From the NCBI GenBank assembly GCA_049322675.1, contig JBMORM010000009.1, forward strand, positions 291,517 through 355,516: a stretch of DNA of 64,000 nt, in the 5' to 3' direction. The notes under the pieces were generated by a model, which worked only from the letters and a program-made list of their open reading frames with translations, ran no database searches and was not told the DNA's origin. Source of the stretch: Patescibacteria group bacterium (GTDB taxonomy: Bacteria > Patescibacteriota > JAHJAL01). Position numbers and translations under genes: made by a program. This document shows, piece by piece, positions 726-48,019 of the stretch (position 1 is the stretch's first letter; each line of letters begins with the position of its first letter).

Positions 726-1499
726 TTATAAATCTTCTTTCTTTATTATATTCAAGAATCTGGTGATTGAAATATAACGGTCGGCCAAGAGTTGGCCGTC
801 TTTAATTAGATTAAAAACGGAATATATTCCTGGGGCGGATTGAGCTTTTTTGGCCGAGTCGATTTCGGTAATGTTCAGCTTAATCTTTTTTTGTTGCAGG
901 ATCGGCTTGACTTCTTCGACGAAACGAACCACCCAAGGGCATTGTTTGGAGTAAATAATATGCCAGCCCGAATATTGTTTTAGTCTATCTTGATTGATTA
1001 GTAATTTTGGTGGATTATTTTTGGCCGCAAATTTTTTGGCTAATAGCTGGAAGTTATTAAATTCTTCAACAATTTCAAAGCCATTTTTGACAAATAATTC
1101 TTTTTTGGCCATGAAAGGACCGTCGCTGGTGATTGTGGCGACGCCGGATTTTTTTAACTTTTTTGCATCTTGGAGAGCTGCTGCAACCAGAGTTGTTCCC
1201 AAACCGTGCCGGCGATTTTTATTGGGACTGACCCAGAGACAATGGATGAATAAATAATTTGTAGCTTTTACCGCACGCCAGGCTTCTTCACCCGGCAGAT
1301 ATTCGACGAAGCCAATTATTTTTTTGGTTTGTTTTAATCTTAATAATTTTATAACCAAACCTTTTTTGAATTGTTTTTTGAGCCAAGCGATTTTGAGATT
1401 GAAATATTCATTTTTGGGATTGATAAAACAAATTGTTTGCGGATAATCACCGAGATTGTCGGCGGTGACGGTGATCGTTTCGTATAAATTGTCTGTCAT
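726..1499 (-). CDS. GNAT N-acetyltransferase with a C-terminal thioredoxin-like (YoaP-like) domain
   Basis: The GNAT core block is HCLWVSP..RRHGLGTTLVAAAL. The C-terminal domain has a CPW motif (YSKQCPWVVRFVEE) typical of thioredoxin-fold or YoaP-like tails. Confidence 0.55.
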   Translation of the reverse strand: MTDNLYETITVTADNLGDYPQTICFINPKNEYFNLKIAWLKKQFKKGLVIKLLRLKQTKKIIGFVEYLPGEEAWRAVKATNYLFIHCLWVSPNKNRRHGLGTTLVAAALQDAKKLKKSGVATITSDGPFMAKKELFVKNGFEIVEEFNNFQLLAKKFAAKNNPPKLLINQDRLKQYSGWHIIYSKQCPWVVRFVEEVKPILQQKKIKLNITEIDSAKKAQSAPGIYSVFNLIKDGQLLADRYISITRFLNIIKKEDL

Positions 1500-14042: not shown

Positions 14043-14783
14043 TTATGTCATATTGTTTTTTCGCTTTTCGTATTTTCTTCTCACTTTTGTTTTTCGCCAC
14101 TTTTCAATTTTTTCGTGATGTCCGGACAATAGTATTTCCGGGACCTGCCAGCCTTTATACTGGACTGGTTTTGTGTATTGTGGATATTCCAGTAAATTTG
14201 GGGTGCGACCTTTTTTGTTGGCCCTGATGGAAAAAGATTCCCCTTGATGGGATTCGGTTTTTATGACGCCGGGGACGAGGCGACTAACGGCGTCAATGAC
14301 GACCATAGCGGGAATTTCGCCACCGGTTAAAACATAGTTGCCGATGGAAATTTGTTCATCAACCAGATGTTCGCGAATTCGTTCGTCAAAGCCTTCATAA
14401 TGGCCACAGATTAAGATCAATTGATCGTATTTGGCCAGACGGCGGGCGGTTGATTGGTTAAATGTTTTACCTTGAGGGGTTAATAATATTTTATGGGTTT
14501 TTCGTAGGGGCAGGTCGCGATCTGCCCCTACATTTGGGCGGACACTTTGGTCCGCCCCTACGATATCGGTTAAACATCGGTCCATCACATCAACTTTTAG
14601 GACCATGCCGGCTCCGCCGCCATATGGCGTGTCGTCAACTTGTTTGTGTTTGTCGATAGCCCAATTTCTTAAATTATGAAGATTAATATTGATAATCCCT
14701 TTCTGTTGAGCTTTTTTCAAAATACTGACATCAAAGACGCCAATAAACATTTCGGGGAATAAAGTGATAATGTCGAAGATCAT
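14043..14783 (-). CDS. trmD: tRNA (guanine37-N1)-methyltransferase
   Basis: MIFDIITLFPEMF...DDTPYGGGAGMVLKVD...ILLTPQG...ICGHYEGFDERI aligns to TrmD throughout. The track's longer start (14831) translates the upstream repeat (WKLCLENWEFN), so the start is reassigned to the internal Met. Confidence 0.85.
   Translation of the reverse strand: MIFDIITLFPEMFIGVFDVSILKKAQQKGIININLHNLRNWAIDKHKQVDDTPYGGGAGMVLKVDVMDRCLTDIVGADQSVRPNVGADRDLPLRKTHKILLTPQGKTFNQSTARRLAKYDQLILICGHYEGFDERIREHLVDEQISIGNYVLTGGEIPAMVVIDAVSRLVPGVIKTESHQGESFSIRANKKGRTPNLLEYPQYTKPVQYKGWQVPEILLSGHHEKIEKWRKTKVRRKYEKRKNNMT
14504..14561. repeat. Tandem pair of GC-rich perfect hairpins, both ending in GCCCCTAC, lying in-frame inside trmD
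   Basis: GTAGGGGCAG-gtcgcgat-CTGCCCCTAC has a 10-bp stem. GGGCGGAC-actttg-GTCCGCCCCTAC has an 8-bp stem. The composition is very GC-rich against an AT-rich background. The pair encodes ..VGADQSVRPNVGADRDLPL.., about 15 aa extra relative to E. coli TrmD. Confidence 0.6.
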
Positions 14784-14801
14784 AATATTAAATTCCCAAT
14801 T

Positions 14802-14913
14802 TTCAAGGCACAATTTCCAATAAATTCTCAATTTCCAATTTTCAAACGGATTTATTTTTTGAAATTGATCATTGGAAATTTTTTGGAAGCTGGAAATTGG
14901 GAATTGGAAATTT
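14802..14913. repeat. TTCCAAT/ATTGGAA-rich intergenic palindromic repeat (copy A)
   Basis: An imperfect inverted repeat built from ATTTCCAA units flanks a central spacer. It belongs to the family seen again at 15706, 24036, 40250, 45968, 48020, 49140 and 52292. Confidence 0.6.
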
Positions 14914-15652
14914 ATTTTGAATAGAATCTTTTTATTTCTGGCGCTTTGAGCAATCGATAATGTCCCTTGGGGAGGTCGCCGAGTTTGAGATGACCGATCC
15001 GGACTCTAATCAACTTTTGTACCTTCAAACCGACGTTGTGGCACATGCGATATATTTGATGCTTTTTTCCTTCATTGATAGTGATATTAAAACTGATTTT
15101 TTCTCGATCAACTCGAATATTTGTAACATCGGCTGGCTTGGTAAGATAGCCAGAGATCAAAACACCTTTAGTTAACTTTCTGATTGATTCTTCCAGATCC
15201 AAGTCATCAAATCGACTTTTGGCGATAACAAAATATTCTTTACCAATGTGATGTTTGGGATGAGTCAGATAATTGGTGAACTCACCATCGTTGGTCAGTA
15301 TTAACAACCCTTCGGTATCTTTATCCAAACGACCGACGGGATAAACGGGCGGATTGTATGGCACGAGGTCGGTGACTTTTCGGTCGGCATGAATATCAAA
15401 TCTGGTTGAAACATAACCGGCCGGTTTGTGCAGTAGATAGTATATTTTTGACTGAGTCTGAATATTCTTTCGTCCTACTTGGATACGATCAATAGTAGGG
15501 TCAACTTTGGTCCCGAGCTTGTCAACAACGTGACCATTGACCTTGATCAAGCCTTCTTGAATCATGTCTTCGGCCTGCCGACGGGAAGCGACTCCGCATT
15601 GGGAGAGATATTTTTGAAGGCGAATTTTGCTATCAGTGTTTTTCATTGCCAT
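14912..15652 (-). CDS. Pseudouridine synthase, RsuA/RluB family, with an S4 domain
   Basis: An S4 domain is at the N-terminus (LQKYLSQCGVASRRQAEDMI). The catalytic block is RLDKDTEGLLILTNDGEF. Confidence 0.8.
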   Translation of the reverse strand: MAMKNTDSKIRLQKYLSQCGVASRRQAEDMIQEGLIKVNGHVVDKLGTKVDPTIDRIQVGRKNIQTQSKIYYLLHKPAGYVSTRFDIHADRKVTDLVPYNPPVYPVGRLDKDTEGLLILTNDGEFTNYLTHPKHHIGKEYFVIAKSRFDDLDLEESIRKLTKGVLISGYLTKPADVTNIRVDREKISFNITINEGKKHQIYRMCHNVGLKVQKLIRVRIGHLKLGDLPKGHYRLLKAPEIKRFYSK

Positions 15653-15705
15653 CTATAATATTTATTGTTAGAATATGATAATTTTGCGTAGCGAGATAAC
15701 TCGAT

Positions 15706-15845
15706 TAATTCCCAATTTCCAATTCTCAATATTCAAAAAATGTCCAATTTCCAAACGAATGCCAAAAAGAATCATGAAACCAAATTAGTTTGGAAATTGT
15801 GCTTTGGAAATTTATTAGAAATTGAGAATTGAAAATTGGAAATTA
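15706..15845. repeat. TTCCAAT-rich intergenic palindromic repeat (copy B)
   Basis: The left arm cccaatttccaattctcaatattcaaaaaatgtccaatttccaaa mirrors the right arm tttggaaattgtgctttggaaatttattagaaattgagaattgaaaattggaaatt. Confidence 0.6.
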
Positions 15846-15869
15846 TTGGTATTTTTCCACAGGTGTTCA

Positions 15870-15898
15870 TTGACTTTATTCTTGTTGATATGTATAAT
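15870..15898 (+). promoter_or_regulatory. Near-consensus sigma70-type promoter (TTGACT-17 bp-TATAAT)
   Basis: TTGACT is at 15870-15875. The 17-bp spacer is ttattcttgttgatatg. TATAAT is at 15893-15898. Confidence 0.55.
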
Positions 15899-15904
15899 GT
15901 TATG

Positions 15905-16155
15905 ATACTAGAAAATGAGATGTTTATCTAGTATCCCCTTCAAAGGAGGGCAATACAATACGATACTCGAAAGTTTTTTCAAACAAAAACAAAAAAATAT
16001 AAACGAAAAAACTTTCAAACAAAAAGAAAAAAACAAAAATAAATCATAACTTTCGAGTATTGTATTTCACAAACAAAAAGGAGAATATATGTGTCGTATT
16101 ATCCTTTAGAGGAAGAAAAATAATCAATCAAAAAGAAATATCTTACGGATATGAG
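15905..16155 (+). ncRNA. Candidate structured ncRNA of unknown class, forming an orphan promoter-to-terminator unit
   Basis: It sits between a consensus promoter and a strong terminator, with no sizeable + strand ORF. There is a 5' hairpin (gatactag...ctagtatc). A long-range helix (caatacaatacgatactcgaaagtt ... aactttcgagtattgtatt) encloses an A/C-rich ~70-nt loop with a duplicated CTTTCAAACAAAAA motif. Confidence 0.3.
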
Positions 16156-16156
16156 C

Positions 16157-16190
16157 AGGTTTTTGAACCTGTTTTTTTTATTTTTTATAG
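16157..16190 (+). terminator. Rho-independent terminator
   Basis: The hairpin CAGGTT-tttg-AACCTG is followed by TTTTTTTT. Confidence 0.6.
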
Positions 16191-16235
16191 TATAAAATCT
16201 TGACAAATATAATATATGTTGTTTGATATAAAAAT

Positions 16236-17105
16236 TTATTTCTTGCGACCAGAAAAAGATTTTGTTTGTTTTTCCACAGCTTCAAGGAGGTTTTCAAACA
16301 GGGAAACGACGGTCATCGGCCCCACTCCTCCGGGGACTGGTGAAACGGCTTTAGATTTCGATTTTACGTCAAAAAAATCCACATCGCCGGTCAATTGAGA
16401 ACCGGAGATCTTGGTAATGCCGACATCAACTATAACCGCATCCTTTTTTACGTGAGCAGCTTTTATCAGATTTGGCTGACCAGCAGCGACTATCAAAATG
16501 TCGGCTTTGGTTGTTTCATGAGTTAAATCCGGTGTCTGGCGATGACAAATGGTTACGGTAGCATCTTGATGCAACATTAGCAAAGCAGTGGGCAAGCCAA
16601 CTAGACGACTACGCCCGATTATGACTGCTTTTTGGCCAGCAATCGGAATTTGATAGAAATCCAATAGAGAAATAATGCCTTTGGCGGTGGCCGGAAAAAA
16701 ACCACCGGGAATATTGTTGAGTAATTTCCACTGATTAATATAGGTTAATCCGTCAACGTCCTTATCAATGTCGATTACTTGAAGTAATATATTGGGATCC
16801 AAGTGATTGGGCAATGGCAATTGGACAATAATACCATGACAATCTGGATCCTGATTGTCGGCATTTATGGAAGATATTATTTCTTCGGGAGAGGTCTCGG
16901 CGACAAATCTTTTGACGACACATTTGACTCCCAATGCCGAGGCTTTTTTTTGTTTGACGCCAATATATGACAATGACGATGGATTATCGCCAACCAGATA
17001 GATATGAAGGTTTGGAATTATCCCTTTGTTTTTTAAATTATCAATTTTTTTGGCAAGTTTTTCGGTTATTTCACTAGCGACTTTTTTGCCATCCAAAATA
17101 ATCAT
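16236..17105 (-). CDS. folD: Bifunctional methylenetetrahydrofolate dehydrogenase/cyclohydrolase
   Basis: The N-terminus is MIILDGKKVASEI.. The protein is 289 aa with a Rossmann block VVIGRSRLVGLPTALLM. Confidence 0.85.
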   Translation of the reverse strand: MIILDGKKVASEITEKLAKKIDNLKNKGIIPNLHIYLVGDNPSSLSYIGVKQKKASALGVKCVVKRFVAETSPEEIISSINADNQDPDCHGIIVQLPLPNHLDPNILLQVIDIDKDVDGLTYINQWKLLNNIPGGFFPATAKGIISLLDFYQIPIAGQKAVIIGRSRLVGLPTALLMLHQDATVTICHRQTPDLTHETTKADILIVAAGQPNLIKAAHVKKDAVIVDVGITKISGSQLTGDVDFFDVKSKSKAVSPVPGGVGPMTVVSLFENLLEAVEKQTKSFSGRKK

Positions 17106-17107
17106 AG

Positions 17108-17180
17108 AAAATTTTTAATTTTTAATTTTTAATTTTTAAACGATTTCTGTTTAGAAATTAAAAATTAAAATTTAGAATTG
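17108..17180. repeat. AT-only palindrome (aatttttaattttt... / ...aaattaaaaattaaaattt) between folD and the PBP gene
   Basis: An inverted repeat made of TTTTTAA units. A possible weak terminator. Confidence 0.4.
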
Positions 17181-17187
17181 AAGATCG

Positions 17188-19179
17188 TTATTTTTCGGAA
17201 CTGCTTGTAGGGTTGTTGTTCTTTTCCGGGGAGAAATAATAATTGATAATATCTAAAGCAATCGGGGCGGCAGTATCCGATCCTTCTCCTCCACCTTCGA
17301 CAAATACCGTGATAGCTATTTGCGGATTGTCAACGGGGGCATAACAAGTAAACCAGGCGTGTTCTTTTTCATTGTTGCTGAATTGGGCAGTACCGGTTTT
17401 ACCCGCTACTTTGACAACAGCGTTTTGCATAAATTTTGCTGTTCCGTCTGTAACCACTTCTTCCAATCCCTGACGAATAATCTGTAAATCATTTTGTTCT
17501 AAAATATTGTCACTGATTACTTCCGGATTTATATTTAGTTTTATTTTACCATCGCTGGTTTTTATTGTCTGCAAGAGATGAGGTCGATATATTTTGCCAC
17601 CGTTGGCGATTGCTTCGGTATAGGCATTTACTTGAAGGGGGGTAACCAGTATATCTCCCTGACCAATAGCGGTATTATAATCATCTCCCAAATACCACTG
17701 TTCGTTTTTTGTTTTTTGTTTCCAATCGGGATATGGAATAAATCCGGCTCTTTCTCCTGATAAATCTATCCCCAGGGTTTTTGATAACATGTATTTTTCG
17801 GCATACTTGATCAGTTTTTCTATTCCAAGACCTTGATATTCTTCATAACCGCCGCCGAAAATATAGAAATAAATATCAGAAGAAAGACTGAGGGCTTTGA
17901 CTACATTAACAGGTCCCAAACCGGCATGATCCCAACTATAGAAAATATAAATGATCGAGGGGTCATATTTGTTGACAATTCTCAGACTGCCTTGGTCGTT
18001 GATAAAGGTATTGATGTCGGCAATCTTTTCTGCCAGGATAGCGGTGGCGGTGACGATTTTGAAAGTGGAGCCTGGCGGATATTCTCCCGAGATAGCACGA
18101 TTGAATAGTGGTAATTTTTCGTTATTTAATAAAGAATCATACTCGGCCTGAGTAAGTCCTTTGGTCATTTGATTTATGGAAAAAGAGGGATAATTTACCA
18201 AACTTAAAATTTGTCCAGTATTGGGGTCGCTGATCACCACGGAAGCTCCTGTTGCTTTGGGAATATTTGATAACTTGTCTTGCAAGCGTTGAAATACAAA
18301 TTTTTGCAGGTCGGAATCAATGGTTGTGTATAGATTATTTCCGGCTGAACTTTCTTTCGGAGTTAGGGTTTGAATTATTTTACCTGTGGCATCTACGATT
18401 CTATACTCGGCGCCGTTGGTTCCTTTTAATTCTTTTTCATAGTATATTTCTAGTCCGGATTTTCCAACTTGGTCGATTGGTTGATATTTTTCGTCTGAAT
18501 TTAAAGTATCTTGATCGACCAGACCAGTATATCCCAAGAAATGGGCGCATTCTTGATCGCAATAATATTGTCGGGAAGAAATGGTTTGGATAAAAAAACC
18601 GGGAATGATTTTTGATTTAATAAGTAGGCTTTTGTCTCGATCGAGGTTTTTGGCAATCAGCAACTCATTCCAATTTTTCAGTCCATCTTTTTCCACCAAT
18701 CGACTAATATCGCTGACCGAAATCGACGTAATAGACGAAATGTCTTGATAGATTGTTAGTCTTTGTGAACTATTGTCGGGCAAGAGGGCGGGGATTACTT
18801 TTAGATCGTATCTTGAAGTATTGCCAGCAATAATGTTACCTTGGCGGTCGTAAATTACCCCTCGGGGAGCATAGTTTGTTTTTACATGAATGATATTACC
18901 TTCGGCTTTTTTTAAGCTTTCTGCACCTTTTATCACTTGCAGCTGCCAGAGGCGTGTTCCAAGAATCAAAAGAAGCAATATTGAAAATAATTGGGCAAGA
19001 TATTGCCAGGTGAAATTTCTATCCGGTAAAACTTCCGATAGTTCTTTTTTGGTTTGGAGAAGTTTGTCGGTACTGGACAAGTTGCCTTCCCAACTTTCTA
19101 TTTCTTGTTGATTGGGATTGATATTTCGTCGTTTGTTGTCTCCGGGCAAACGATCATATTTTCGACCAAAATAGTCCAT
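17188..19179 (-). CDS. mrdA: Penicillin-binding protein 2-type peptidoglycan D,D-transpeptidase
   Basis: An N-terminal TM helix is followed by SxxK (PGSTFKIV), SxN-like (LSSD) and KTG (GKTGTAQ) motifs. The protein is 663 aa. Confidence 0.8.
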   Translation of the reverse strand: MDYFGRKYDRLPGDNKRRNINPNQQEIESWEGNLSSTDKLLQTKKELSEVLPDRNFTWQYLAQLFSILLLLILGTRLWQLQVIKGAESLKKAEGNIIHVKTNYAPRGVIYDRQGNIIAGNTSRYDLKVIPALLPDNSSQRLTIYQDISSITSISVSDISRLVEKDGLKNWNELLIAKNLDRDKSLLIKSKIIPGFFIQTISSRQYYCDQECAHFLGYTGLVDQDTLNSDEKYQPIDQVGKSGLEIYYEKELKGTNGAEYRIVDATGKIIQTLTPKESSAGNNLYTTIDSDLQKFVFQRLQDKLSNIPKATGASVVISDPNTGQILSLVNYPSFSINQMTKGLTQAEYDSLLNNEKLPLFNRAISGEYPPGSTFKIVTATAILAEKIADINTFINDQGSLRIVNKYDPSIIYIFYSWDHAGLGPVNVVKALSLSSDIYFYIFGGGYEEYQGLGIEKLIKYAEKYMLSKTLGIDLSGERAGFIPYPDWKQKTKNEQWYLGDDYNTAIGQGDILVTPLQVNAYTEAIANGGKIYRPHLLQTIKTSDGKIKLNINPEVISDNILEQNDLQIIRQGLEEVVTDGTAKFMQNAVVKVAGKTGTAQFSNNEKEHAWFTCYAPVDNPQIAITVFVEGGGEGSDTAAPIALDIINYYFSPEKNNNPTSSSEK

Positions 19180-23972: not shown

Positions 23973-24035
23973 TATTTTTTATTTAGCTTGAAAACAAAAT
24001 TTTGAATATTGGATAGTATTTACGAGTTTTGTCTT

Positions 24036-24112
24036 AATTTTCAATTTTCAATTTCCAATTTCCACTAAATGATCAATTTTCAATGAGAATGATTAGTTTG
24101 GAAATTATTAAT
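24036..24112. repeat. TTCCAAT-rich intergenic palindromic repeat (copy C)
   Basis: ttttcaattttcaatttccaatttccac...gattagtttggaaattattaattgaag. Confidence 0.5.
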
Positions 24113-24126: not shown

Positions 24127-27069
24127 TTATTTTACGACAATGTTTACTATCTTTCCCTTAATATAAATTTCTTTGACAATTTCTTTGCCGGTGATAAACT
24201 TTGTTACTTCGGGAGTTGATTTGGCAAGGGAAATGATTGTTTTTTCTTCAAGGTCGGCGGCAATAACAATTTCCGCCCGTCTTTTGCCGTTAACTTGAAT
24301 AGGAATTGTCAGAAGTTCTTCTTTGACTAGATCAGGATCGTATTGCGGCCAAGTCATGAGATTGATTGAATTGTTGTGACCCAATTGATGCCAAAGTTCT
24401 TCGCAAACATGGGGACAAATTGGAGAAAGCAATAACAATAAACCTTCCAGGGCTTGTTTCCAAGCCAGGGGATCTTTGGCAAGAGGAAATTTTTGTTTCA
24501 GATCGTTGAGGTCGTTAACAAAAATCATCAGATTGGAAACAACGGTGTTGAAGCTAAATTTGTCATACAAGGAGCTGATGCGCTTGATGTTTTTGTGTAC
24601 AAGAGAAGCCAATTCGACTTCTTTTATTTCTGACGAGTCATAGAGCCATTGGTCGGGGGTTTCTTGGATCTTTTCGTTTACCAAAATAATTTCTTGTGCT
24701 AACGTCCACAGTTTGAATAAAAATCGATTGACGCCTTTGACGCCGTTGGTATCCCAAGGAATGGCATCGGTATAAGGACCCATAAACATTTCATAGCCAC
24801 GCAAAGTATCGGCTCCGTATTCATCAATTACTTCTATGGGATTGATAACATTGCCCTTGGATTTGGACATTTTTATACCACCTTCTCCAAGAACCATGCC
24901 ATGAGCGATGCGTTTTTGGTAAGGTTCGGAAGTCGGCACCAGGCCTTGATCAAAGAGAAATTTGTGCCAGAAACGGGAATACAGAAGATGCAAAGTAACA
25001 TGTTCCATTCCACCATTGTAAATATCGACCGGAGACCAATATTGTAATTTTTTGTAATCAGCAAAAATATCCTCATTATGAGGGTCGCAATAGCGAAGAT
25101 AATACCAGGAAGATCCTGCCCAGTTGGGCATAGTGTCGGTTTCGCGTTTGGCCGGACCACCGCAAGTTGGACAAGTAGTATTTACCCACTCGTCAATCGA
25201 GGCCAAAGGTGATTCGCCGGTATCGGTTGGTTGGTAATTTTTGACGTCTGGCAAGATTAAAGGCAAATCTTTTTCTGGCAAAGGAATAGTGCCACATTGT
25301 TCACAATAAACAATTGGAATCGGTTCGCCCCAATAATGCTGGCGGGAAAAAACCCAATCGCGGAGATTGTAATTGACTTTCTTTGATCCTAGTTTTTGTT
25401 CTTGTAACCAAGTAATTATTTTCTCTGTGGCAATAGCCGAATCCAATCCGGAAAATTCGCCCGAATCATGAGTGACACCATAATCAGAGAATAGTTTGGA
25501 GTTATTAAAAAATCTTTCTTTCCAGATATTAAATTCTGAGCAATTTAGATTTGGATCATGTTCCAATTCATCCCAAGTAAGCCAAATTAGATCGTATTTT
25601 TCTTGCTCATCGGCAGAGATGGATTGCTGTTGATTATCTATAAGCTCAAAGACCAAAGCAGTAAATAATGCTTGTCGGTTTACGTCTTTATGGGCGGCAT
25701 AAAAATTGGACTGAACTGGTAATCCTAGCGTTTTGATAAATTTTAAATTAAAAAATCCCGTTTCTTCGGCGATCTCTCTTTGAGCGGCAGCGATAGTATC
25801 CTCTCCTTCTTCGATACCTCCTACAATTAATGTAGTCCAAGGAAATTTTTTATGTCGAAGGCACAATATTTTTTTTGTCTTTGGATCAATAACAATGGCC
25901 TGGATTGCTTGTCGAAATACAGTAGATTTATCGTCTCGCAGAGGATGTTTGGTATCAATTATTTTGGGAATAATTACTTCTTTGATAGGCAAATCGTATT
26001 TGGAAGCAAAATCCCAATCGCGTTGATCGTGAGCAGGGACGGCCATGATGGCGCCGGTGCCATAGTCGGCCAGAACATAATCGGCAATCCAAATTGGTAT
26101 TTTCTCATTATTGATTGGATTAACCGCATAAGAACCAGTAAAAACACCTGTTTTTTCTTTATTTTCTTGGCGTTCGATATTGCTTTTGGCAAGCGAAAGC
26201 TTGACATACTTGTCCACATCTTTTTTTTGTTCGGGAGTAATTATTTTTTCAATCAATTCATGCTCAGGTGCCAAAACCATAAAAGTAACGCCAAATAAGG
26301 TGTCAGGTCTGGTTGTAAAAACTTCTAAATATTTATCTTTGAGTTTTGAGTTTTGAATTTTGAATTTGATACTTGCCCCTTCCGATCTTCCGATCCAGTT
26401 GGCTTGTTGATCTTTAATCGCAGGCAGATAATCAACATCCTTGAGACCATTTAATAATTTGTCCGCGTAGGCAGTAATTTTGAGCATCCATTGAGAAAGC
26501 TCTTTTTTGGTTGTGGGCGTGCCGCAACGCTCGCAATTGCCGGCAATTACTTCTTCGTTGGCTAAGCCCGTTTTACAAGAAGGACACCAATTGATTGGCA
26601 TCTTTTTTTTGTAAGCCAAACCGGCTTTGTAAAGTTGCAGAAATATCCATTGGGTCCACTTGTAGTATTCAGGTTTGGAGGTGTCAATTTCCCTCGACCA
26701 ATCGAAGGAAAAACCGACACGTTGAGCTTGTTTTTTAAAATTGGCGGTATTTTTGGCGGTAACGATTGTCGGATTGATCCCGTGTTTGATGGCATAATTT
26801 TCGGTTGGCAGGCCAAAAGCATCCCAGCCAAAGGGGAAAAGAACATTGTAACCATCCATACGACTTTTGCGTGCGACGATATCTAAAGCAGTATAAGGAC
26901 GGCAATGACCGACGTGCAGACCTTCGCCGGAGGCGTAGGGAAACTCGATCAAAATATATTTTTTGGGCTTGGAGGAAGAGTCTTGGCCTTGATATATTTT
27001 TTCTTCTTCCCAGACAGATTGCCATTTGGGCTCTATTTCTTGCGGATTATAATTTTTTTGTTTATCCAT
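24127..27069 (-). CDS. leuS: Leucyl-tRNA synthetase carrying an internal Nudix-domain insertion
   Basis: Present are the HIGH-class motif (HVGH), KMSKS, an editing-domain block TTRPDTLFGVTFMVLAPEH and the conserved C-terminal domain. At 980 aa it is longer than the roughly 860 aa of E. coli LeuRS. Confidence 0.9.
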   Translation of the reverse strand: MDKQKNYNPQEIEPKWQSVWEEEKIYQGQDSSSKPKKYILIEFPYASGEGLHVGHCRPYTALDIVARKSRMDGYNVLFPFGWDAFGLPTENYAIKHGINPTIVTAKNTANFKKQAQRVGFSFDWSREIDTSKPEYYKWTQWIFLQLYKAGLAYKKKMPINWCPSCKTGLANEEVIAGNCERCGTPTTKKELSQWMLKITAYADKLLNGLKDVDYLPAIKDQQANWIGRSEGASIKFKIQNSKLKDKYLEVFTTRPDTLFGVTFMVLAPEHELIEKIITPEQKKDVDKYVKLSLAKSNIERQENKEKTGVFTGSYAVNPINNEKIPIWIADYVLADYGTGAIMAVPAHDQRDWDFASKYDLPIKEVIIPKIIDTKHPLRDDKSTVFRQAIQAIVIDPKTKKILCLRHKKFPWTTLIVGGIEEGEDTIAAAQREIAEETGFFNLKFIKTLGLPVQSNFYAAHKDVNRQALFTALVFELIDNQQQSISADEQEKYDLIWLTWDELEHDPNLNCSEFNIWKERFFNNSKLFSDYGVTHDSGEFSGLDSAIATEKIITWLQEQKLGSKKVNYNLRDWVFSRQHYWGEPIPIVYCEQCGTIPLPEKDLPLILPDVKNYQPTDTGESPLASIDEWVNTTCPTCGGPAKRETDTMPNWAGSSWYYLRYCDPHNEDIFADYKKLQYWSPVDIYNGGMEHVTLHLLYSRFWHKFLFDQGLVPTSEPYQKRIAHGMVLGEGGIKMSKSKGNVINPIEVIDEYGADTLRGYEMFMGPYTDAIPWDTNGVKGVNRFLFKLWTLAQEIILVNEKIQETPDQWLYDSSEIKEVELASLVHKNIKRISSLYDKFSFNTVVSNLMIFVNDLNDLKQKFPLAKDPLAWKQALEGLLLLLSPICPHVCEELWHQLGHNNSINLMTWPQYDPDLVKEELLTIPIQVNGKRRAEIVIAADLEEKTIISLAKSTPEVTKFITGKEIVKEIYIKGKIVNIVVK
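25510..25947 (-). other. Nudix hydrolase domain inserted in-frame within leuS
   Basis: A perfect Nudix box GGIEEGEDTIAAAQREIAEETGF is encoded at + 25757-25821, inside about 140 extra residues between ..IKEVII and ..SGEFSGLD. Confidence 0.7.
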
Positions 27070-29268: not shown

Positions 29269-30174
29269 ATGAAAATTGGAATTTTTGGTTCAAAAAATAC
29301 TCCTGAATCTCAATTGTTGGAAAAAGCAGCGATTGAGAAAGGACATACAGCCGTCAGATTTTCGCAATATGATTTTACTTTCGAATTGCGCAACAATATT
29401 TTTTCGATTAGATCGGAAATTGATTTTGCCGACTTGGATATTGTATTAATCAGAGGAATAGACAGACAGTACAATTTTGATAATAGAAGTTTTAATAAAG
29501 CAAATGAGGCATTGATTACCCTCAGGTACTTAAGAGAAGAATTGGGTATTCCTCTGGTTGATGAATATCGGGTATTGGATCCATTTTTTTATCAATCCGG
29601 TAAAATGATGACAGCACAAAAGTTGGCTCAGGAAAAAATTCCTCAACCTGATGCTTGGCAGTTTGGTTCAAAAGAAAAACTGAAAGAAGCTATAAATAGT
29701 TTTTCCTTTCCTTTGATTGCCAAAAGTCCCAATGGAAGAAAGGGGTTGGGAATCTACAAGTTGGAATGTCAGGCTGATTTGGAAAAATTGTTGAGCGATC
29801 TGACAACAGATAGTTTTCCTTATATTATTCAGGAATATCTTCCTTCGGATGGGGATATTCGGGTTTTTTGCGTCGGTTACAAAGCATTGGGCGCGATGAA
29901 AAGGTTTATTCCAACAGGCGACTTTCGAGCAAATATATCTCAGGGCGGCAGAGGAGAAAAAATTGTTTTACCAAAAGAAGCGATAGAAATTGCCGAAAAG
30001 GCTGCCGAGGTGACTAAAACGGAAATTGCCGGCGTGGATTTGATTGAGTCAAATGGCAAATACTATGTGATAGAGGTCAATCAAGCGCCGCAGTTTAGAG
30101 GTTTTATTGAATATACTGGTATCAATCCGGCTAACGCGATCGTGGATTATCTGGAGAAGAAAGCAAAAAAGTGA
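29269..30174 (+). CDS. RimK-family ATP-grasp ligase (alpha-L-glutamate ligase-like)
   Basis: GDIRVFCVGYKALGAMKRFIPTGDFRANISQGGRGEKI and GVDLIESNGKYYVIEVNQAPQF align block-for-block with E. coli RimK. The start is 18 nt after the upstream gene's stop. Confidence 0.75.
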   Translation: MKIGIFGSKNTPESQLLEKAAIEKGHTAVRFSQYDFTFELRNNIFSIRSEIDFADLDIVLIRGIDRQYNFDNRSFNKANEALITLRYLREELGIPLVDEYRVLDPFFYQSGKMMTAQKLAQEKIPQPDAWQFGSKEKLKEAINSFSFPLIAKSPNGRKGLGIYKLECQADLEKLLSDLTTDSFPYIIQEYLPSDGDIRVFCVGYKALGAMKRFIPTGDFRANISQGGRGEKIVLPKEAIEIAEKAAEVTKTEIAGVDLIESNGKYYVIEVNQAPQFRGFIEYTGINPANAIVDYLEKKAKK

Positions 30175-30178: not shown

Positions 30179-31063
30179 TTACTTTTGGATTTTTTGCTGG
30201 AGATAATCAATAATCTCGGCCGCCACGTCAATACTGGTGGCCTTTTTGAAACCGTCAAAATAACAATATCGATTGATTTCGATAATATACGGTTGGCCTT
30301 GATGAAAAAGAATATCGATTCCGGCGTGTTCGCATTTGACCGCTGAGGAGGCGCGGAGTGCCAGATCGGCAATTTCCGGAGGAACGGAATAATTTTCGAC
30401 TTGATTGCCCAATGAATAATTGGTGCGAAATTCCTGTGGATTTATAGAAATTCTTTTCATGCCACCGAGTACTTTTTTACCCAAAGTAATAATGCGTAAA
30501 TCATAATCGATCGGCCAGTATTTTTGAGCCAAATAAAGACGATGTTTGGCTCTTTTTTGATATCTGGGGAGATTTTCAAGATCGGATGAATTATTAATTT
30601 TATAAACTGTCAGACCGCAAGTACCGTTGATGCATTTGTAAATAAATGGCAGACCAAATGTTTGAGAAATGTAGCGAAAATCATTTTTTACAGTATCCAA
30701 GGTGGCCGGAATGATGGGAATTGATTTTTCGGCTAGCAGAGCATATTGGATAGCTTTGTCAAAGAGCGGATAATCGATAATAGAGTCTTGATTGAGTAGA
30801 TATATATTGTGTTTTTTGGCGTAAATTGCCAGTAGATGAGAAATATGAGTAAGATTGACCGGACGGCGCAGGATAAGACAATCATAGGTTGACAAAGGCA
30901 AATCGGGAACAAGTATTTGGAAACCGTCTTGATTGTTAAAAATTAGTTTAAGATCACGATAGCTGCAGTGATCGATTTGATGATTTTTTGACTGGCCGGC
31001 AGCGATCAAACTTTCCACCGGTTGATTGTTTTTTTTGATTAAACTGACGATAAGAATTTTCAT
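30179..31063 (-). CDS. Second RimK-family ATP-grasp ligase, convergent with the first
   Basis: The blocks DYDLRIITLGKKVLGGMKRI..EFRTNYSLGNQ and AGIDILFHQGQPYIIEINRYCYFDGF are present. Confidence 0.7.
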   Translation of the reverse strand: MKILIVSLIKKNNQPVESLIAAGQSKNHQIDHCSYRDLKLIFNNQDGFQILVPDLPLSTYDCLILRRPVNLTHISHLLAIYAKKHNIYLLNQDSIIDYPLFDKAIQYALLAEKSIPIIPATLDTVKNDFRYISQTFGLPFIYKCINGTCGLTVYKINNSSDLENLPRYQKRAKHRLYLAQKYWPIDYDLRIITLGKKVLGGMKRISINPQEFRTNYSLGNQVENYSVPPEIADLALRASSAVKCEHAGIDILFHQGQPYIIEINRYCYFDGFKKATSIDVAAEIIDYLQQKIQK

Positions 31064-36717: not shown

Positions 36718-39700
36718 ATGGCAAAAACCAAAACGATAATTTTGATTATCTGTATTTTGGTATTTTCAGGTTTGACTGATCAAATGGGAATTTGCGGGGA
36801 AAAAATTTTGTATGACGTGCCATACCGCAATCAGGTTATTGATTTTCCTGGTTGGTCGCAAAATTGGGCTTCGTGCGGTTATACTTCCACGTTGATGAAT
36901 TTATTGTATTGTGAGGCGTTACCATCCGGGATGTCGGAACAATCATTGATCGAGAAAATGTACACAGACTGTTCTATAACGACTGAAGATGGCTCGGTGA
37001 TTTTTTACTACGAAAAATTGGATGAATTTTGTGAACAAAATATCCCCGAGTATGATCTGGAAGTGCGATTTATCCGCGACGACTTTGAAAATAAGATCAA
37101 GAAAACGATTGATGACGAAATGCCGGTAATATGCGGTACATATATTTTTGGCAATGTCGGGCATGTGATTTTGATCGTCGGTTATGACGATAACAATTGG
37201 ATTGTGCACGATCCGGCCAACGACTGGGGACAAGAACGCTGGCCAGACGGAGGTTTTACTTGGGAAAATGCCGATTTTGTTCGTTTTCCAATCGGTAGTT
37301 TTACGATTTTGTATGGAGCCAGTATTTTTTCGGAAAACAGTAAAGAATTTGCCGCCAAGATAGTCGAACAAAGCCCGACGATAGTTTTGTCAAACGAGGG
37401 AGAAATGAAGATGCTGTGGGTAAAGTTGAAAAATAATGGTACTAGTGATTGGTTGCAGGAAAAAATCCATTTGGGAACTTATCAACCGCTTGATCGTTTG
37501 TGCGGATTGGTGGCAAAATCTGATCCAGAAAAATATCGGTGGCTAGGAACGAAAAACAGACTGATGATGGAACAAAAAAAGGTAGAGCCAGGGCAAACGG
37601 CAATTTTTGGAATACCAATGGAGAAAAATAATTTCGTAGGAAATTTTCCCGAGAGTTTTCGTTTGATTAACGACGATCAAAACGGTCGCTGGTTTGGACC
37701 AACAATCTGCTGGAACATCGAGTGCTTGCCGACAGCGAATATCAATCAGCCGGTGAGTATTTTTGCCGGCAAATACTGCTTTCATACCGGCGATCTCCAC
37801 AATCACAGTTCTTGGTCGGGCGAGAAGACAACCGTTGCCCAACTGGTCGAACAAGGTAAAACAAATGGTTTAAAATTTTTGGGCATTACGGATAAAGCGG
37901 AAAAATTGGGAGACAATACTAATATTTGCCAATATCTGTCGGAGATAAAAAAGGTGGCGGATGAAAAGCAATATATTTTGCTGGCAGGCATAGAATACAA
38001 TGTGACAAATTACGGCAACGAAATTTATAGTCCGAACGAATCTGGGATAAAGGCGATCGGGTTGGGCTACAATAATTTGCAACCACAAGATTTGCCAGAT
38101 TGGTTTCCTTGGGAGACAAAGGGAAAAAAAGTGACTTGGGAAGAATTGGTTGACTGGCATTTTCAGCATGGGTTGCCACTTTTTATCGCTCATCCGTTGG
38201 ATAAGGGCAAAAACGGATGGTCGGCAAAGGAATTGATTGAAAAAAGTATGATATCTAAATTAGAAAAATTGGCTGGAATCGAGATTTTTGCAAAAATTCA
38301 TTTTTCATCTTTGTTTGCAATCAACGGCAATAATATGATTGGATTGTTTAATCCCGGTTTGAATTTGGAGAATTCGATCGAATTGTACAAAAACTTTCTG
38401 GGACCGATAGGGATAGGGGTGTTTGGTGGGGAAAATCCGGCAAAAACAATAATTGCCACGGAATCATCTCAACTTAAAACCGAGCAAATAATCGAGGCAA
38501 TATCCAAGAAAAAAACTGTTGCTGTCAACAATACCGCAGCCATTGATTTTATTAAAATATCCAATAAGGAATGGGCGCCGGGAAATTGGGGACAAACGAT
38601 AATATCGGGAGGACAGGTAAAGATCGAGGGGCAAACCCTATGGTTGCCAAACTCCAGTCAACAAAAGTGTTTATATATTATAAGAAACAACAAATTGGTT
38701 CACAAACAGTTGATTGAGGGTAGAGAGAGAATTAATTTTTCTTTTACTGACAACTGCCATAAACCGGGAAAATACGGTTATCAAATCGCAATTTGCGAAA
38801 AGAGAGCAAATCAAGCCGAAGAAGGGAAATTGTTCACTAGTCCGATTTACGTCGAAGTCAAAGATGAAGATCAGGTGGAAAATCAGATGGAAACGGTAAG
38901 TGAACAACAAAAAGAATTGCTTGTTTTTACACCGACAATTCATCTGGGCGATTCGTTTTATGAGGGCGAGATCAATCGGGGTTTTAAACGAGAAAAAGCC
39001 GAATCTGTTTTGGTTACAAAGATTTTTTCTTTATCTTCTGAGGATTTAGTTAATATATCTGATTGTCAGTTGCAACTAGAGCTGTGCGGGGCGCAACTGG
39101 AAAAAAATAGCAATCAAGGTAATCCTATCGTCATCAATTGCCAAAAAATCGGCGAATGTCTGATCCCCAATGAAGATCCCCAAAAAAATAATTTGGTTTA
39201 CAAATACGCCGTTCCTTTGTCCTGTTTGCAAACTGGAAACAACGAGCTATTTATCCGATCTTTGCCTCGAGCTTACTTTTTACGAAATGGAAAGACATTT
39301 ATTGATTTTGATGATTTTGAGATCAGAGACATCAAACTGGTTTTTTATTATGGTAAAAATAATTTCCGACCAGATAAAAATGCCGTTGTGTCAGCCAAAA
39401 AGATACCCTTGAAAAACGGGAGCGAAGAGTTGTCATTTGTCTCGGATCAAGACTTGGATGATTTTTCTCAAGAATCAAAAAAAATAATTGATGATTTTGA
39501 ACAAAAGGGCGGAAAATTTGTTGTGGACAAAGATCCTCGATACCCACAATTTTTAGCTCTGATCGAGCCAATTGTAGAAAATATTGAAAAACTACCGCAA
39601 AGGACAACAATAAAATGGAAATTTTTTGAATCAAATACACTGGATCCGATCGCCTTGCCCGATCGGACAATATTGGTGCCAACAGGGTTGTTGACCAACG

Positions 39701-40182
39701 AAAAGGAACTTCCGGAAAATAAAATATTTCCGATAGTATCCGCAATTTTTCAGTCAGACTTAGGGATAAGTCACAAACAAGCAAATCGGAAAGATTTGGC
39801 CGGTGTTTTAGGTTTTTTGGGGTCGATGCTGACAAAAAATGAAAACATTGTCGCCAAATATACTGGTATGGGTTTATTGTTGGCAGGATCATTATCTTTG
39901 AAATCAGAAGATGAAGACTTTTATATCGCTGACGCCTATGCTTATGATTGGATGAAACAAAATGGCCTGGGATCCGATCAGGCTTTTTCTCTGTTGGATG
40001 CCGCGGGCAGACTAGAAAAATACCCAGGTAATGATCAGAAATATAATATTTTGGCGCCGCCGGCAAACAAAAGGTTGGAGGCGTTGACAAATTATATTTA
40101 TTGGCAGAATACTTATCCTTTGCCAATAACACCAGATATAATCGATTGGGAGAGGGCAGTAGAGAAAAAAGATAAAAATTAA
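36718..40182 (+). CDS. Giant secreted multidomain protein with an N-terminal C39-like papain-fold cysteine peptidase domain and a PHP-family phosphoesterase domain
   Basis: The signal peptide is MAKTKTIILIICILVFSGLTDQ. A Cys/His pair typical of the Peptidase_C39-like fold is present (..NWASCGYTS.. and ..GHVILIVGYDDNNWIVHDPAN..). A PHP motif follows (FHTGDLHNHSSWSGE). About 700 aa at the C-terminus are unassigned. Confidence 0.55.
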   Translation: MAKTKTIILIICILVFSGLTDQMGICGEKILYDVPYRNQVIDFPGWSQNWASCGYTSTLMNLLYCEALPSGMSEQSLIEKMYTDCSITTEDGSVIFYYEKLDEFCEQNIPEYDLEVRFIRDDFENKIKKTIDDEMPVICGTYIFGNVGHVILIVGYDDNNWIVHDPANDWGQERWPDGGFTWENADFVRFPIGSFTILYGASIFSENSKEFAAKIVEQSPTIVLSNEGEMKMLWVKLKNNGTSDWLQEKIHLGTYQPLDRLCGLVAKSDPEKYRWLGTKNRLMMEQKKVEPGQTAIFGIPMEKNNFVGNFPESFRLINDDQNGRWFGPTICWNIECLPTANINQPVSIFAGKYCFHTGDLHNHSSWSGEKTTVAQLVEQGKTNGLKFLGITDKAEKLGDNTNICQYLSEIKKVADEKQYILLAGIEYNVTNYGNEIYSPNESGIKAIGLGYNNLQPQDLPDWFPWETKGKKVTWEELVDWHFQHGLPLFIAHPLDKGKNGWSAKELIEKSMISKLEKLAGIEIFAKIHFSSLFAINGNNMIGLFNPGLNLENSIELYKNFLGPIGIGVFGGENPAKTIIATESSQLKTEQIIEAISKKKTVAVNNTAAIDFIKISNKEWAPGNWGQTIISGGQVKIEGQTLWLPNSSQQKCLYIIRNNKLVHKQLIEGRERINFSFTDNCHKPGKYGYQIAICEKRANQAEEGKLFTSPIYVEVKDEDQVENQMETVSEQQKELLVFTPTIHLGDSFYEGEINRGFKREKAESVLVTKIFSLSSEDLVNISDCQLQLELCGAQLEKNSNQGNPIVINCQKIGECLIPNEDPQKNNLVYKYAVPLSCLQTGNNELFIRSLPRAYFLRNGKTFIDFDDFEIRDIKLVFYYGKNNFRPDKNAVVSAKKIPLKNGSEELSFVSDQDLDDFSQESKKIIDDFEQKGGKFVVDKDPRYPQFLALIEPIVENIEKLPQRTTIKWKFFESNTLDPIALPDRTILVPTGLLTNEKELPENKIFPIVSAIFQSDLGISHKQANRKDLAGVLGFLGSMLTKNENIVAKYTGMGLLLAGSLSLKSEDEDFYIADAYAYDWMKQNGLGSDQAFSLLDAAGRLEKYPGNDQKYNILAPPANKRLEALTNYIYWQNTYPLPITPDIIDWERAVEKKDKN

Positions 40183-40242: not shown

Positions 40243-40249
40243 TTAAATT

Positions 40250-40375
40250 CTAATTTCCAATTCTCAATTTCCAAAAAATGTCCAATTTTCAATTTTCAAA
40301 CATTATTGAATTTAACTTGGAAATTGGACATTTTTTGGAAATTGAAAATTGTGAATTGGAAATTTTGTGCAGCTA
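40250..40375. repeat. TTCCAAT-rich intergenic palindromic repeat (copy D)
   Basis: aatttccaattctcaatttccaaaaaatgtccaattttcaattttcaaac mirrors cttggaaattggacattttttggaaattgaaaattgtgaattggaaatt. Confidence 0.6.
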
Positions 40376-41265: not shown

Positions 41266-41349
41266 GGGCGAGTGGCGGAACTGGCAGACGCAAGGGACTT
41301 AAAATCCCTCGGAGTTTACTCCATGAGAGTTCGATTCTCTCCTCGCCCA
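41266..41349 (+). tRNA. tRNA-Leu (anticodon TAA), type II with a long variable arm
   Basis: The acceptor pairs GGGCGAG with CTCGCCC. The D-arm is gcgg..cgc. The anticodon stem pairs AGGGA with TCCCT and the loop is cTTAAaa. The variable arm pairs ggagt with actcc. The T-arm is GAGAG-TTCGATT-CTCTC, and the discriminator is A. Confidence 0.85.
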
Positions 41350-42443: not shown

Positions 42444-43136
42444 ATGGGAAATTTTAATCGAGGCAATAGATCAGGCGGCGGTAGAGGTTTTGGTGGACGC
42501 AGATTTGGTGGTGGCGGCGGAGGAAGAGGTATGGGACGACCGCAGATGCATCAAGCTACTTGCAGTGAATGCGGAGAGGAATGCGAAGTTCCTTTTCGGC
42601 CAAGCAATGACAAACCAGTATATTGCGATGATTGTTTTGGAGAAAAAAAAGGTAGTAGTTTAAAAAGATCGGATAGAAGAGATGCTGATTTTGGGAATAG
42701 GTCAAAGTTTAATGATAAAAAAATGCATGATGCTATCTGTGATAGTTGCGGAGATCGATGTCAGGTTCCTTTCAAACCAACCAGCGGCAAACCAGTGTTT
42801 TGCAGTGAATGTTTTGAAAAAGAGGGGGGCGGGGCAAGAAAAAATAAGAGAAATGACAGTAGGTCAGAACAAGCAGAAATTATTGATAACAGCTATGAAA
42901 TTGGACAGATCAAGGCAGAATTATTCGCTTTAAATAGCAAAGTGGATAATATATTGCATATTTTAAATAAAACAGAGACGACCGAGGAACCAAATAAGAA
43001 GGAAGTTAAAAAGCCAGAAAAAAAGGAAGTTACCAAAAAAAGTGGCAAAAAGAATAAGACGGAAAATACTGAAAAACAGTCTATCGGGAAAAAGAAAACA
43101 ACGGTCAAAAAGACAAAGAAATCGAAGAGAAAATAG
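42444..43136 (+). CDS. RGG-rich protein with a tandem CxxCG zinc ribbon and a lysine-rich tail (putative nucleic-acid binding)
   Basis: The N-terminus is GGGRGFGGRRFGGGGGGRG. The two repeats are CSECGEECEVPFRPSNDKPVYCDDCF and CDSCGDRCQVPFKPTSGKPVFCSECF. The C-terminal tail is K-rich and histone-H1-like. Confidence 0.55.
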   Translation: MGNFNRGNRSGGGRGFGGRRFGGGGGGRGMGRPQMHQATCSECGEECEVPFRPSNDKPVYCDDCFGEKKGSSLKRSDRRDADFGNRSKFNDKKMHDAICDSCGDRCQVPFKPTSGKPVFCSECFEKEGGGARKNKRNDSRSEQAEIIDNSYEIGQIKAELFALNSKVDNILHILNKTETTEEPNKKEVKKPEKKEVTKKSGKKNKTENTEKQSIGKKKTTVKKTKKSKRK

Positions 43137-47037: not shown

Positions 47038-47119
47038 ATTGAGTTGATTTGACTATTTTTATCACCTATAATAAGATTTGTGTGAGATTTATATTTGTTT
47101 TTATATCAGAAGAGAAATT

Positions 47120-47470
47120 ATGTTAATGATCAGATTGGCTCGCTTTGGCAAGAAGAAACAACCTTTTTATCGTTTGTCCGTAGCGGAAAGAAGACATAGT
47201 CCAAATGGTAAGAATACTGAGTATATTGGTATTTATAATCCGAAAAGCAAGGAATTGAAAATTGACCAAGAAAGAGCGAAGTACTGGTTAAGCAAAGGTG
47301 CTGGTTGTTCCAGAACTATAGCTATGTTATTTGTCAAAGAGGGGTTATTAAAAAAAGAAGGTTTGCCAGCCAAGTACTTGCATGCCAGAACAAGGAAGAA
47401 AAAGAAACAATCAGAATCGGAGGCAGCGCCACAAGCTGCTGCTAGTCCGGCTGAGCAACCAGCGGCGTAG
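47120..47470 (+). CDS. rpsP: 30S ribosomal protein S16 with a basic/Ala-Pro C-terminal extension
   Basis: MLMIRLARFGKKKQPFYRLSVAERRHSPNGKNTEYIGIYNP. The start is set at an internal ATG, because the track's upstream extension MCEIYICF.. is unlikely to be real. Confidence 0.8.
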   Translation: MLMIRLARFGKKKQPFYRLSVAERRHSPNGKNTEYIGIYNPKSKELKIDQERAKYWLSKGAGCSRTIAMLFVKEGLLKKEGLPAKYLHARTRKKKKQSESEAAPQAAASPAEQPAA

Positions 47471-47484
47471 AGTTGGTACCGAAA

Positions 47485-47513
47485 TTGAATTCAGTCTGAA
47501 TTGTTGTTATAAT
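47485..47513 (+). promoter_or_regulatory. Consensus-like sigma70-type promoter (TTGAAT-17 bp-TATAAT) between rpsP and the KH-domain gene
   Basis: ttgaat tcagtctgaattgttgt tataat. About 110 nt of leader contain an 8-bp stem (ctggtaaa / tttaccag) before a strong SD, GAAGGAG. Confidence 0.5.
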
Positions 47514-47991: not shown

Positions 47992-48019
47992 GGATTAATA
48001 AATATAATTAGAATAATAG

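Follow-up and report, generated by a model that had tools for sequence, protein, structure and literature searches.

The short mccA transcript is a highly abundant, ribosome-bound and exceptionally stable RNA that ends at an intrinsic terminator (PMC4231749), and its open reading frame (ORF) is conserved in length while parts of its sequence vary (PMC6495379). In Bacillus thuringiensis the STAB-SD of cry3A, a non-initiating sequence that resembles a Shine-Dalgarno (SD) site, is believed to bind 16S rRNA at the 3' end, blocking 5'-3' decay by RNase J1 (PMC4113751). Dual-function small RNAs are structured, have their own transcription and carry a conserved small ORF (PMC3526287), and the leader peptide MsrDL (MYLIFM) is a hexapeptide that stalls the ribosome at its stop codon and blocks formation of a terminator (PMC10314930). 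Here we analyze a stretch of 64,000 nucleotides (nt) from a Patescibacteria group bacterium (contig JBMORM010000009.1, positions 291,517 to 355,516), referred to below as the window, in which a promoter-to-terminator unit at 15870-16190 recalls features of these systems. An initial annotation, made from the letters alone, had proposed that this unit probably encodes a structured non-coding RNA. The reading favored here, tentatively and at slightly less than an even chance, is that it is a free-standing structured RNA gene of ~280 nt whose RNA is also the mRNA of a conserved six-codon ORF; it would then be a peptide-coding, ribosome-stabilized and possibly dual-function small RNA.

Judged from its sequence, the unit would appear to come closest in its working to an mccA-type mini-mRNA joined to a STAB-SD-type leader, or else to a dual-function small RNA; it belongs to none of these groups. 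With the mccA mini-mRNA of the microcin C operon (E. coli and H. pylori) it shares a promoter, an SD site, a tiny ORF (seven codons in mccA, six here) and an intrinsic terminator. However, MccA, typically of seven residues, serves as substrate for the neighboring MccB (a ThiF-like adenylyltransferase) and has Asn or Asp as its last residue for adenylation, whereas the peptides predicted here have six residues, the last being L, A, V or Y. There is also no ThiF/MccB-like, export, immunity or other biosynthetic gene nearby at any locus according to Pfam content, nor a downstream operon, and the ORF here is preceded by a 185-nt covarying structured domain. As in STAB-SD, the motif AAAGGAGGG is SD-like and lies near the 5' end without a conserved start codon, and by analogy it might stabilize the RNA; unlike STAB-SD, it is partly paired in a hairpin, it belongs to an SD-poor genome and, in the divergent instance L007, the SD-like AAGGAGGG lies ~140 nt from the 5' end. 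The likeness to SR1/SR1P of B. subtilis, RNAIII/hld of S. aureus and SgrS/SgrT of E. coli consists in a structured unit with a conserved small ORF, here recognized by sequence comparison only; their ORFs have 26-43 or more residues in contrast to six here, and there is no Rfam or sequence relationship to them. Leader-peptide attenuators (msrDL, ermCL and ermAL1) likewise place an SD-led ORF of hexapeptide scale, with a hydrophobic core, upstream of an intrinsic terminator, but here no regulated gene lies behind the terminator, the latter is 40-50 nt from the stop codon and no conserved antiterminator is seen. The E-peptide mini-gene in 23S rRNA (Tenson and Mankin) reportedly encodes a pentapeptide found by resistance selection. 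It too is said to be a very short SD-led ORF, with a hydrophobic peptide that acts in cis on the translating ribosome; it is also said to differ in having five residues rather than six, another consensus and a location within rRNA, and no antibiotic link is apparent here.

A conserved unit divergent from a pseudouridine synthase gene

The unit occupies an intergenic region (15653-16235) of a window with ~37% GC. A sigma-70-type promoter, TTGACT-N17-TATAAT at 15870-15898 on the + strand, scores 11/12 against the consensus and is the top-scoring site within 14800-17300. At the other end, an intrinsic terminator with a 9-bp stem (16153-16174) followed by T8ATTTTTT extends over 16153-16190 (+); its stem is the only terminator-like site in 14800-17300. 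Both flanking genes, as had been stated, lie on the opposite strand: one encodes a protein with S4 and PseudoU_synth_2 Pfam domains, of the RluB/RsuA type (14912-15652, -), the other FolD according to its Pfam content (16236-17105, -), and both are part of a series of - strand genes that extends over 726-20969. The near-perfect promoter of the initial annotation was thus recovered as described, and its strong intrinsic terminator stands with a span slightly wider than the 16157-16190 first given.

Relatives were found from homologues of the synthase, and the contigs fetched encode proteins 57-80% identical. Eight instances of the unit, representing about six lineages, are compared here (the window, L001, L002, L003, L005, L007, L008 and L009). 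L001 is a metagenome-assembled contig (DAIRGB010000026.1, Patescibacteria group bacterium) whose synthase is 96% identical; its RNA unit is nearly identical to that of the window, while the DNA between unit and synthase is unrelated. The unit is likewise present beside synthases with 80% (L002), 70% (L005), 69% (L009), 68% (L003), 61% (L008) and 57% (L007) identity. At all eight loci it lies upstream of and divergent from the synthase gene; the other neighbor is always convergent but variable, being FolD, a hypothetical protein of 130 or 155 residues or a TrmB-family regulator. The promoter pattern TTGAC[TA]-N17-TA[TC]AAT-N5-GATA has identical spacing in all eight instances, and the terminator is kept in each. 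The features exceed chance expectation, as relatives keep the entire unit in place and the adjacent intergenic DNA is not conserved. Together with the sole terminator and the strong promoter, this conservation supports the proposal of an independent transcription unit.

Five clearly related Patescibacteria lineages and a divergent one carry the unit. In leave-one-out searches with nhmmer the lineages were recovered at E = 1e-10 to 1e-19, except for L007 (E=0.59), which therefore cannot be counted as a secure member; its position, promoter, 5' hairpin, motifs and ORF make it a probable divergent member. Each locus has one copy according to nhmmer, and the window holds no further one. Upstream of the synthase gene, L024, L025/26 and L027 lack the unit, and the contigs of L010, L023 and L028 end too close to the synthase to show its presence or absence. 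A scan of a genome collection with the synthase protein returned one locus; a strict DNA pattern (promoter, 5' hairpin and AAGGAGGG) found only three already-known lineages in metagenome contigs, and looser patterns gave only chance matches on viral contigs. By these comparisons the RNA family is real but narrow, an undescribed family that appears limited to a small Patescibacteria clade in the collections searched. In L024 the synthase gene itself (1020-1751), which has no RNA unit upstream, is split into a 48-residue S4 ORF and a 170-residue catalytic ORF, by frameshift or assembly error.

The unit matches no known RNA family. At the gathering score, Rfam found nothing in the whole window apart from a tRNA at 41266-41349 and nothing in six homologous loci, the covariance models for signal recognition particle (SRP) RNA and RNase P RNA included; ARAGORN reported no tRNA or transfer-messenger RNA (tmRNA) gene in 15000-17000, and in comparison with tmRNA the mini-ORF here has its own SD site and ATG. 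These scans agree with the initial failure to match the unit by eye to RNase P, SRP RNA, tmRNA or 6S RNA. A permissive Rfam scan of 15600-16300 gave only an 'L20 leader' and plant-miRNA near-matches. The former covers only the terminator (22.9 bits, with the gathering score at 58.7), whereas the latter correspond to an adjacent palindromic repeat rather than to the RNA unit.

The predicted transcript is nonetheless highly structured. Its minimum free energy (MFE) over 287 nt is -61.6 kcal/mol as compared to -36.4 +/- 3.9 for dinucleotide shuffles (z = -6.4), and none of 200 shuffles was equally stable. With the transcription start placed from the position of the -10 box, a 5'-terminal hairpin termed P1 (GATACTAGA...TCTAGTATC, with arms GATACTAG..CTAGTATC; 15904-15935, +) would begin at +1. 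This is the 5' hairpin that had been predicted, and in a hand alignment of the eight sequences 68 of 68 cells pair, versus 25-49% with the partner arm slid; pairs 5, 7 and 9 are altered on both sides (C-G/U-G/U-A, A-U/G-C and A-U/G-C).

A long-range helix of 19 bp (P3, +), recognized by BLAST self-complementarity, joins 15957-15975 to 16048-16066 with 18 of 19 positions complementary and one G-U pair. Here too the earlier proposal holds; the loop closed by the helix is A-rich, measures 72 nt and contains a duplicated TTTCAAACAAAAA. In a 12-bp core of P3, 83 of 84 cells pair in seven sequences (23-39% when slid) and four to five pairs show compensatory double changes. Read on the - strand, seven G-U cells would turn into A-C mismatches, which fixes the RNA strand as +. 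RNAalifold recovers both P1 and P3, with 7 of 21 pairs altered on both sides. When pairs were counted on a MAFFT alignment (A4) from which an insert in L005 had been removed, with slid partners and 500 shuffles as controls, 94.7% of cells paired versus 30-44% in the slid controls; seven pairs were altered on both sides, a number that 8 of the 500 shuffles reach, and the covariation score of 0.286 was attained by none of them (0.192 +/- 0.023). For so few sequences this support for P1 and P3 is good but not overwhelming. Thus the homologous regions appear to keep both pairings through compensatory changes, and the proposal of a structured RNA without an Rfam counterpart is backed by covariation. 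That it is a pure non-coding RNA is not established, for the RNA could be largely the leader of a six-codon + strand gene.

The loop closed by P3 (15976-16047, +) is A-rich and G-poor, and its A-skew on one strand is strong in every lineage. It holds two conserved motifs on the + strand that are present in all lineages, AAACAAAAACAAAAAAA (15981-15997) and AAACGAAAAAAC (16001-16012), and the A-rich motifs AAACAAAAACAAAA and AAAACGAAAA are invariant within it. In L005 a near-perfect hairpin of 62 nt (CCCGGTACTAAC...GTTAGTACCGGG; 1339-1278, - strand) is inserted in the loop. In L007 (2405-2052) the modules are reordered, with the AAGGAGGG hairpin inside the long helix and no SD site 5' of the ORF.

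Between P1 and P3 lies a small hairpin, P2 (CCCTTC/GGAGGG; 15936-15950, +), whose 3' arm is the SD-like AAAGGAGGG (15942-15950). The small GC hairpin of the initial annotation is therefore present, its letters (ccctt..aaggg) being only approximate. The motif AAGGAGGG, at +39 to +47 in the window, is invariant in all eight instances. There is no conserved start codon 3' of the SD-like motif, and the ORFs that follow vary in frame, start and length across lineages. Its pairing partner is upstream in most lineages and downstream in L008; because the partner moves in this way, it is the sequence that is conserved and not the hairpin. A role of the 5' arm of P2 as an anti-SD switch was ruled out, as L008 lacks this arm. 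An ORF led by the first SD-like motif was also rejected, since an ATG is found there only in L005 (where a 49-residue ORF is called) and frames and lengths disagree elsewhere. A hairpin that sequesters the second SD site (AAAGGA with TCCTTT in the MFE fold of the window) was discarded because it is not conserved.

The six-codon ORF and its proposed expression

The ORF ATG TGT CGT ATT ATC CTT TAG (16089-16109, +), which encodes MCRIIL, is conserved as six codons plus a stop in all eight instances. An SD site, AAGGAG (16078-16083, +), precedes its ATG by 5 nt; seven of the eight instances have a GGAG or GGAGG 1-9 nt 5' of the ATG despite divergent surrounding bases. The predicted peptides are MCRIIL (window, L001 and L005), MCPIIL (L002), MCDIVA (L003), MCDIVV (L009), MCPIIY (L008) and MCKIIL (L007), which give a consensus of M-C-x-I-(I/V)-x. 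Cys2 is encoded by TGT or TGC and Ile4 by ATT or ATC, so that all changes at these codons are synonymous; codon 5 is ATY or GTY, and Leu6 is CTT, CTC or TTA. Column entropy averages 0.62 over the ORF, as opposed to 1.24 in the 24 nt upstream and 1.12 in the 24 nt downstream. The A-rich spacer between stop codon and terminator (16110-16152, +) is free in sequence and constrained in length, the distance from the stop to the terminator loop being 50-59 nt in all eight instances while the spacer sequence diverges. This pattern of variation in the ORF is that expected of purifying selection on a translated peptide, as far as about six lineages can indicate.

The initial annotation had noted two mini-ORFs, MCRIIL behind its SD site and a K/Q-rich ORF of 44 residues (15915-16049), and had treated both as incidental. 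Both exist. For the longer one the dismissal was correct: it carries a 1-nt deletion and frameshift in L001, stops after ILESF in L002 and is not conserved as a gene. For MCRIIL it was not, as this ORF shows the clearest coding-type conservation of the unit. Read-through of its stop codon was rejected, as the in-frame downstream peptides are unrelated K/N-rich strings. A sensor of TrmD-dependent codons (CCN or CUN) was likewise excluded, since L003 and L009 contain no such codon.

The genome is SD-poor, with GGAG, GAGG or AGGA within 17 nt of the first start in 4 of 59 long ORFs (~7%). In the window, A/T-rich runs come before most starts. Strong SD sites are found at only a few genes, located at 47639-47935 (+), 42531-43136 (+), 726-1499 (-) and 51400-52086 (-); these include genes for a KhpA-type KH-domain RNA-binding protein, a treble-clef zinc-finger protein, a GNAT acetyltransferase and a membrane protein (AAAGGAGGG-N7-ATG). 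The sequence AAAGGAGG complements the canonical anti-SD; neither the window nor the related loci contain a gene for 16S rRNA or RNase J.

A mechanism consistent with these features would proceed as follows. The strong promoter, recognized by sequence and conservation, would fire divergently from the rluB-type synthase gene, and the +1 hairpin and the 3' terminator, both evident from sequence and covariation, would shield the two ends of the RNA from exonucleases. The SD-like AAAGGAGGG, with no start codon to serve, may recruit 30S subunits in the manner of the cry3A STAB-SD. P3 would loop out an unstructured A-rich platform and draw the 5' module near the true ribosome-binding site, where ribosomes would initiate at the SD-led ATG; the codon-type conservation suggests that the hexapeptide could be made repeatedly and at a high level. 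The selected product may be the peptide or the act of translating it, and bound ribosomes might in turn stabilize the RNA, as on the mccA mini-mRNA.

A stronger form of this reading takes the six-codon ORF for a free-standing gene in its own right, with fewer codons than the seven of mccA, and the hexapeptide itself for the selected product, which would act in the ribosome tunnel (in cis or as a sensor) or be released as a signal. Its delivery would fall to a dedicated ribosome-recruiting scaffold of decoy SD, A-rich platform and true SD that evolved in an SD-poor lineage. This stronger form we hold to be unlikely. If translated, the ORF would be among the shortest conserved genes known and would offer a natural case of an elaborate covarying RNA scaffold that serves to express six codons. 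Almost nothing is known of regulatory RNAs and micro-peptides in Patescibacteria (candidate phyla radiation, CPR), and two strong SD-type sites on one RNA may provide a handle on special uses of the anti-SD by SD-poor bacteria, so far studied mainly in Bacteroidia. An annotation model for such units would consist of promoter, P1, AAGGAGGG and P3, then ATGTGY..ATY. Should the unit be only a stabilized small RNA of a narrow clade, it would be a modest addition to the catalogue.

Several observations weigh against the messenger reading. Its main weakness is that the covarying P3 and the invariant A-rich motifs exceed what a mere stabilizer of an mRNA would need, which argues for a separate function at the RNA level. 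In L007 an A-rich context replaces the SD site 5' of the ORF, and residues 3 (R/P/D/K) and 6 (L/A/V/Y) vary radically. The argument from codon pattern rests on few independent changes because only eight sequences from about six lineages are available, and pairing between SD and anti-SD in this host is assumed. In addition, no modifying enzyme, exporter or receptor gene is conserved beside the unit at the eight loci.

Alternative explanations

Since P3 and the loop motifs look like more than a stabilizer, the RNA may in addition act on a protein or on the 30S subunit, as a platform or a sponge. In its pure form this explanation holds that the A-rich loop on P3 and the GGA motifs titrate a protein (of Hfq, S1, KH or CsrA type) or else free 30S subunits or the anti-SD tail, and that the mini-ORF merely loads a stabilizing ribosome, the peptide being irrelevant. 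The covariation of P3, the invariance of AAACAAAAACAAAA and AAAACGAAAA and the one-sided A-skew of the loop in every lineage are all consistent with it, as is the retention of AAGGAGGG even in the rearranged L007, which has no SD site before its ORF. Two strong SD-like sites on one RNA are moreover unusual for an SD-poor genome, and SD-blind ribosomes of Bacteroidia are known to employ SD sites for special regulation (PMC9976891). However, a pure sponge leaves unexplained the exact six codons, the invariant Cys and Ile and the exclusively synonymous change at codons 2 and 4; the binding protein is only postulated, and the loop tolerates both the 62-nt insertion in L005 and the reordering of modules in L007. 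We therefore regard the pure sponge as somewhat unlikely. A 6S-like RNA that binds RNA polymerase, the other possibility raised in the initial annotation, would suit the size of ~280 nt, the strong and constitutive-looking promoter and the high degree of structure, yet it is extremely unlikely: there was no 6S match even at E<=10 in 15600-16300 and none at the gathering threshold in the six homologous loci, no central bubble mimics an open promoter (the big loop is one-sided, A-rich and 72 nt long), and the fold lacks a 5'/3' closing stem because P1, a local hairpin, holds the 5' end and the terminator forms the 3' end.

Two further explanations place the function in cis. In one, the unit controls rluB-trmD, its transcription occluding, colliding with or pairing antisense to the synthase transcripts; the RNA gene is oriented antisense to any transcript that might read through from - strand genes upstream. 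At every locus the RNA gene is immediately divergent from the synthase gene, whichever gene lies on its other side, and a promoter-like pair on the - strand (TAGATA-17-TATCAT, 15902-15930, 9/12), a candidate synthase promoter, overlaps the RNA start. An equivalent pair occurs in six of the eight instances; L005 has a weaker and shifted one, and L007 has none there. The -10-like box of the pair, TATCAT or TAATAT, is the conserved start region of the RNA (ATGATA or ATATTA) in reverse complement, and P1 contains the -35-like box. The distance from the synthase ATG in L003 and L009 is 11-14 nt to the -35 box of the RNA and 45-48 nt to the RNA start, so that either two promoters overlap, probably back-to-back, or the synthase is read through antisense to the RNA. 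The latter course is made plausible by the unidirectional terminator, whose stem read on the - strand has no U-tract directly 3'. Interference would nevertheless require only a promoter, and not covarying helices, an SD-led ORF and conserved loop motifs; a 160-nt repeat element separates RNA and synthase in the window without loss of the RNA, and L024, L025 and L027 have the synthase without the RNA. The duplex between the RNA and the translation start of the synthase is no better than shuffles in energy, and pairing in trans with this region, the sole target tried, was rejected on the same result. Control in cis may coexist with the messenger reading, but it leaves the anatomy of the RNA unexplained, and as the principal function it appears decidedly unlikely. 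The remaining explanation is a nascent-peptide sensor, in which the hexapeptide stalls the ribosome upon encountering a small molecule or a tRNA shortage and alters termination or the fate of the RNA, for instance by antisense read-through into the convergent gene. The order of SD site, six-codon ORF, spacer and intrinsic terminator resembles msrDL, I-(I/V) gives the peptide a hydrophobic core, the stop-to-terminator-loop spacing is held at 50-59 nt and promoter-like boxes are conserved in and after the terminator. Yet none of the eight loci has a co-directional gene downstream, the terminator stem begins 40-50 nt past the stop and thus beyond the reach of a stalled ribosome, single-sequence folds share no conserved antiterminator or alternative pairing, and the C-terminal residue is variable. 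A sensor of this kind is very improbable.

The boxes in and just 3' of the terminator form an unexplained promoter-like set, TTGAAC-N17-TATAGT-N8-TTGACA (16163-16205, +). Across the instances it reads TTGA(AC/CG)-N17-TATAGT/ATTAGT/ATTACT/AATACT/TATACT-N8-TTGAC[AT]; the 17-nt box spacing is kept in all eight while the intervening bases and the downstream gene differ. The trailing TTGAC is found at a 37-nt offset in six instances, L008 has TTTAC at 38 and L007 has none. The set could be a second promoter that fires antisense into the convergent gene.

Neighboring genes and other features of the window

In the window trmD follows the pseudouridine synthase gene at 14043-15652 (-), and the pairing of synthase and trmD is conserved in all related loci. 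The usual rpsP-khpA-rimM-trmD cluster is split, with rpsP and khpA together at 47078-47935 (+).

Dispersed intergenic elements of 45-160 nt built of GGAAATT/AATTTCC heptamers occur at 14785-14920, 15695-15855, 24030-24112, 40245-40370, 46550-46595, 48015-48148, 49135-49262 and 52288-52408. Most are palindromic and form long imperfect hairpins (-13 to -52 kcal/mol), while that at 46550 is a mere short tandem run of 46 nt. The element at 15695-15855, a palindromic repeat of 160 nt, separates the RNA promoter from the synthase gene, and L001 lacks it there; the heptamer elements are the cause of the plant-miRNA near-matches in Rfam.

Leucyl-tRNA synthetase (24127-27069, -; 980 residues) has an apparent NUDIX domain at residues 386-504, directly behind the editing domain, and two stand-alone NUDIX genes are located at 57163-57741 and 57745-58218. 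Two convergent genes for RimK-like ATP-grasp ligases (29269-30174, +, and 30179-31063, -) adjoin ORFs of 669 and 424 residues without Pfam domains. RimK-like enzymes can modify peptides and proteins, and no evidence ties this pair to the hexapeptide 13 kb away. Finally, the gene at 36718-40182 (+) encodes a protein of 1154 residues with an N-terminal Peptidase_C39-like domain and a weak match to a PHP domain.

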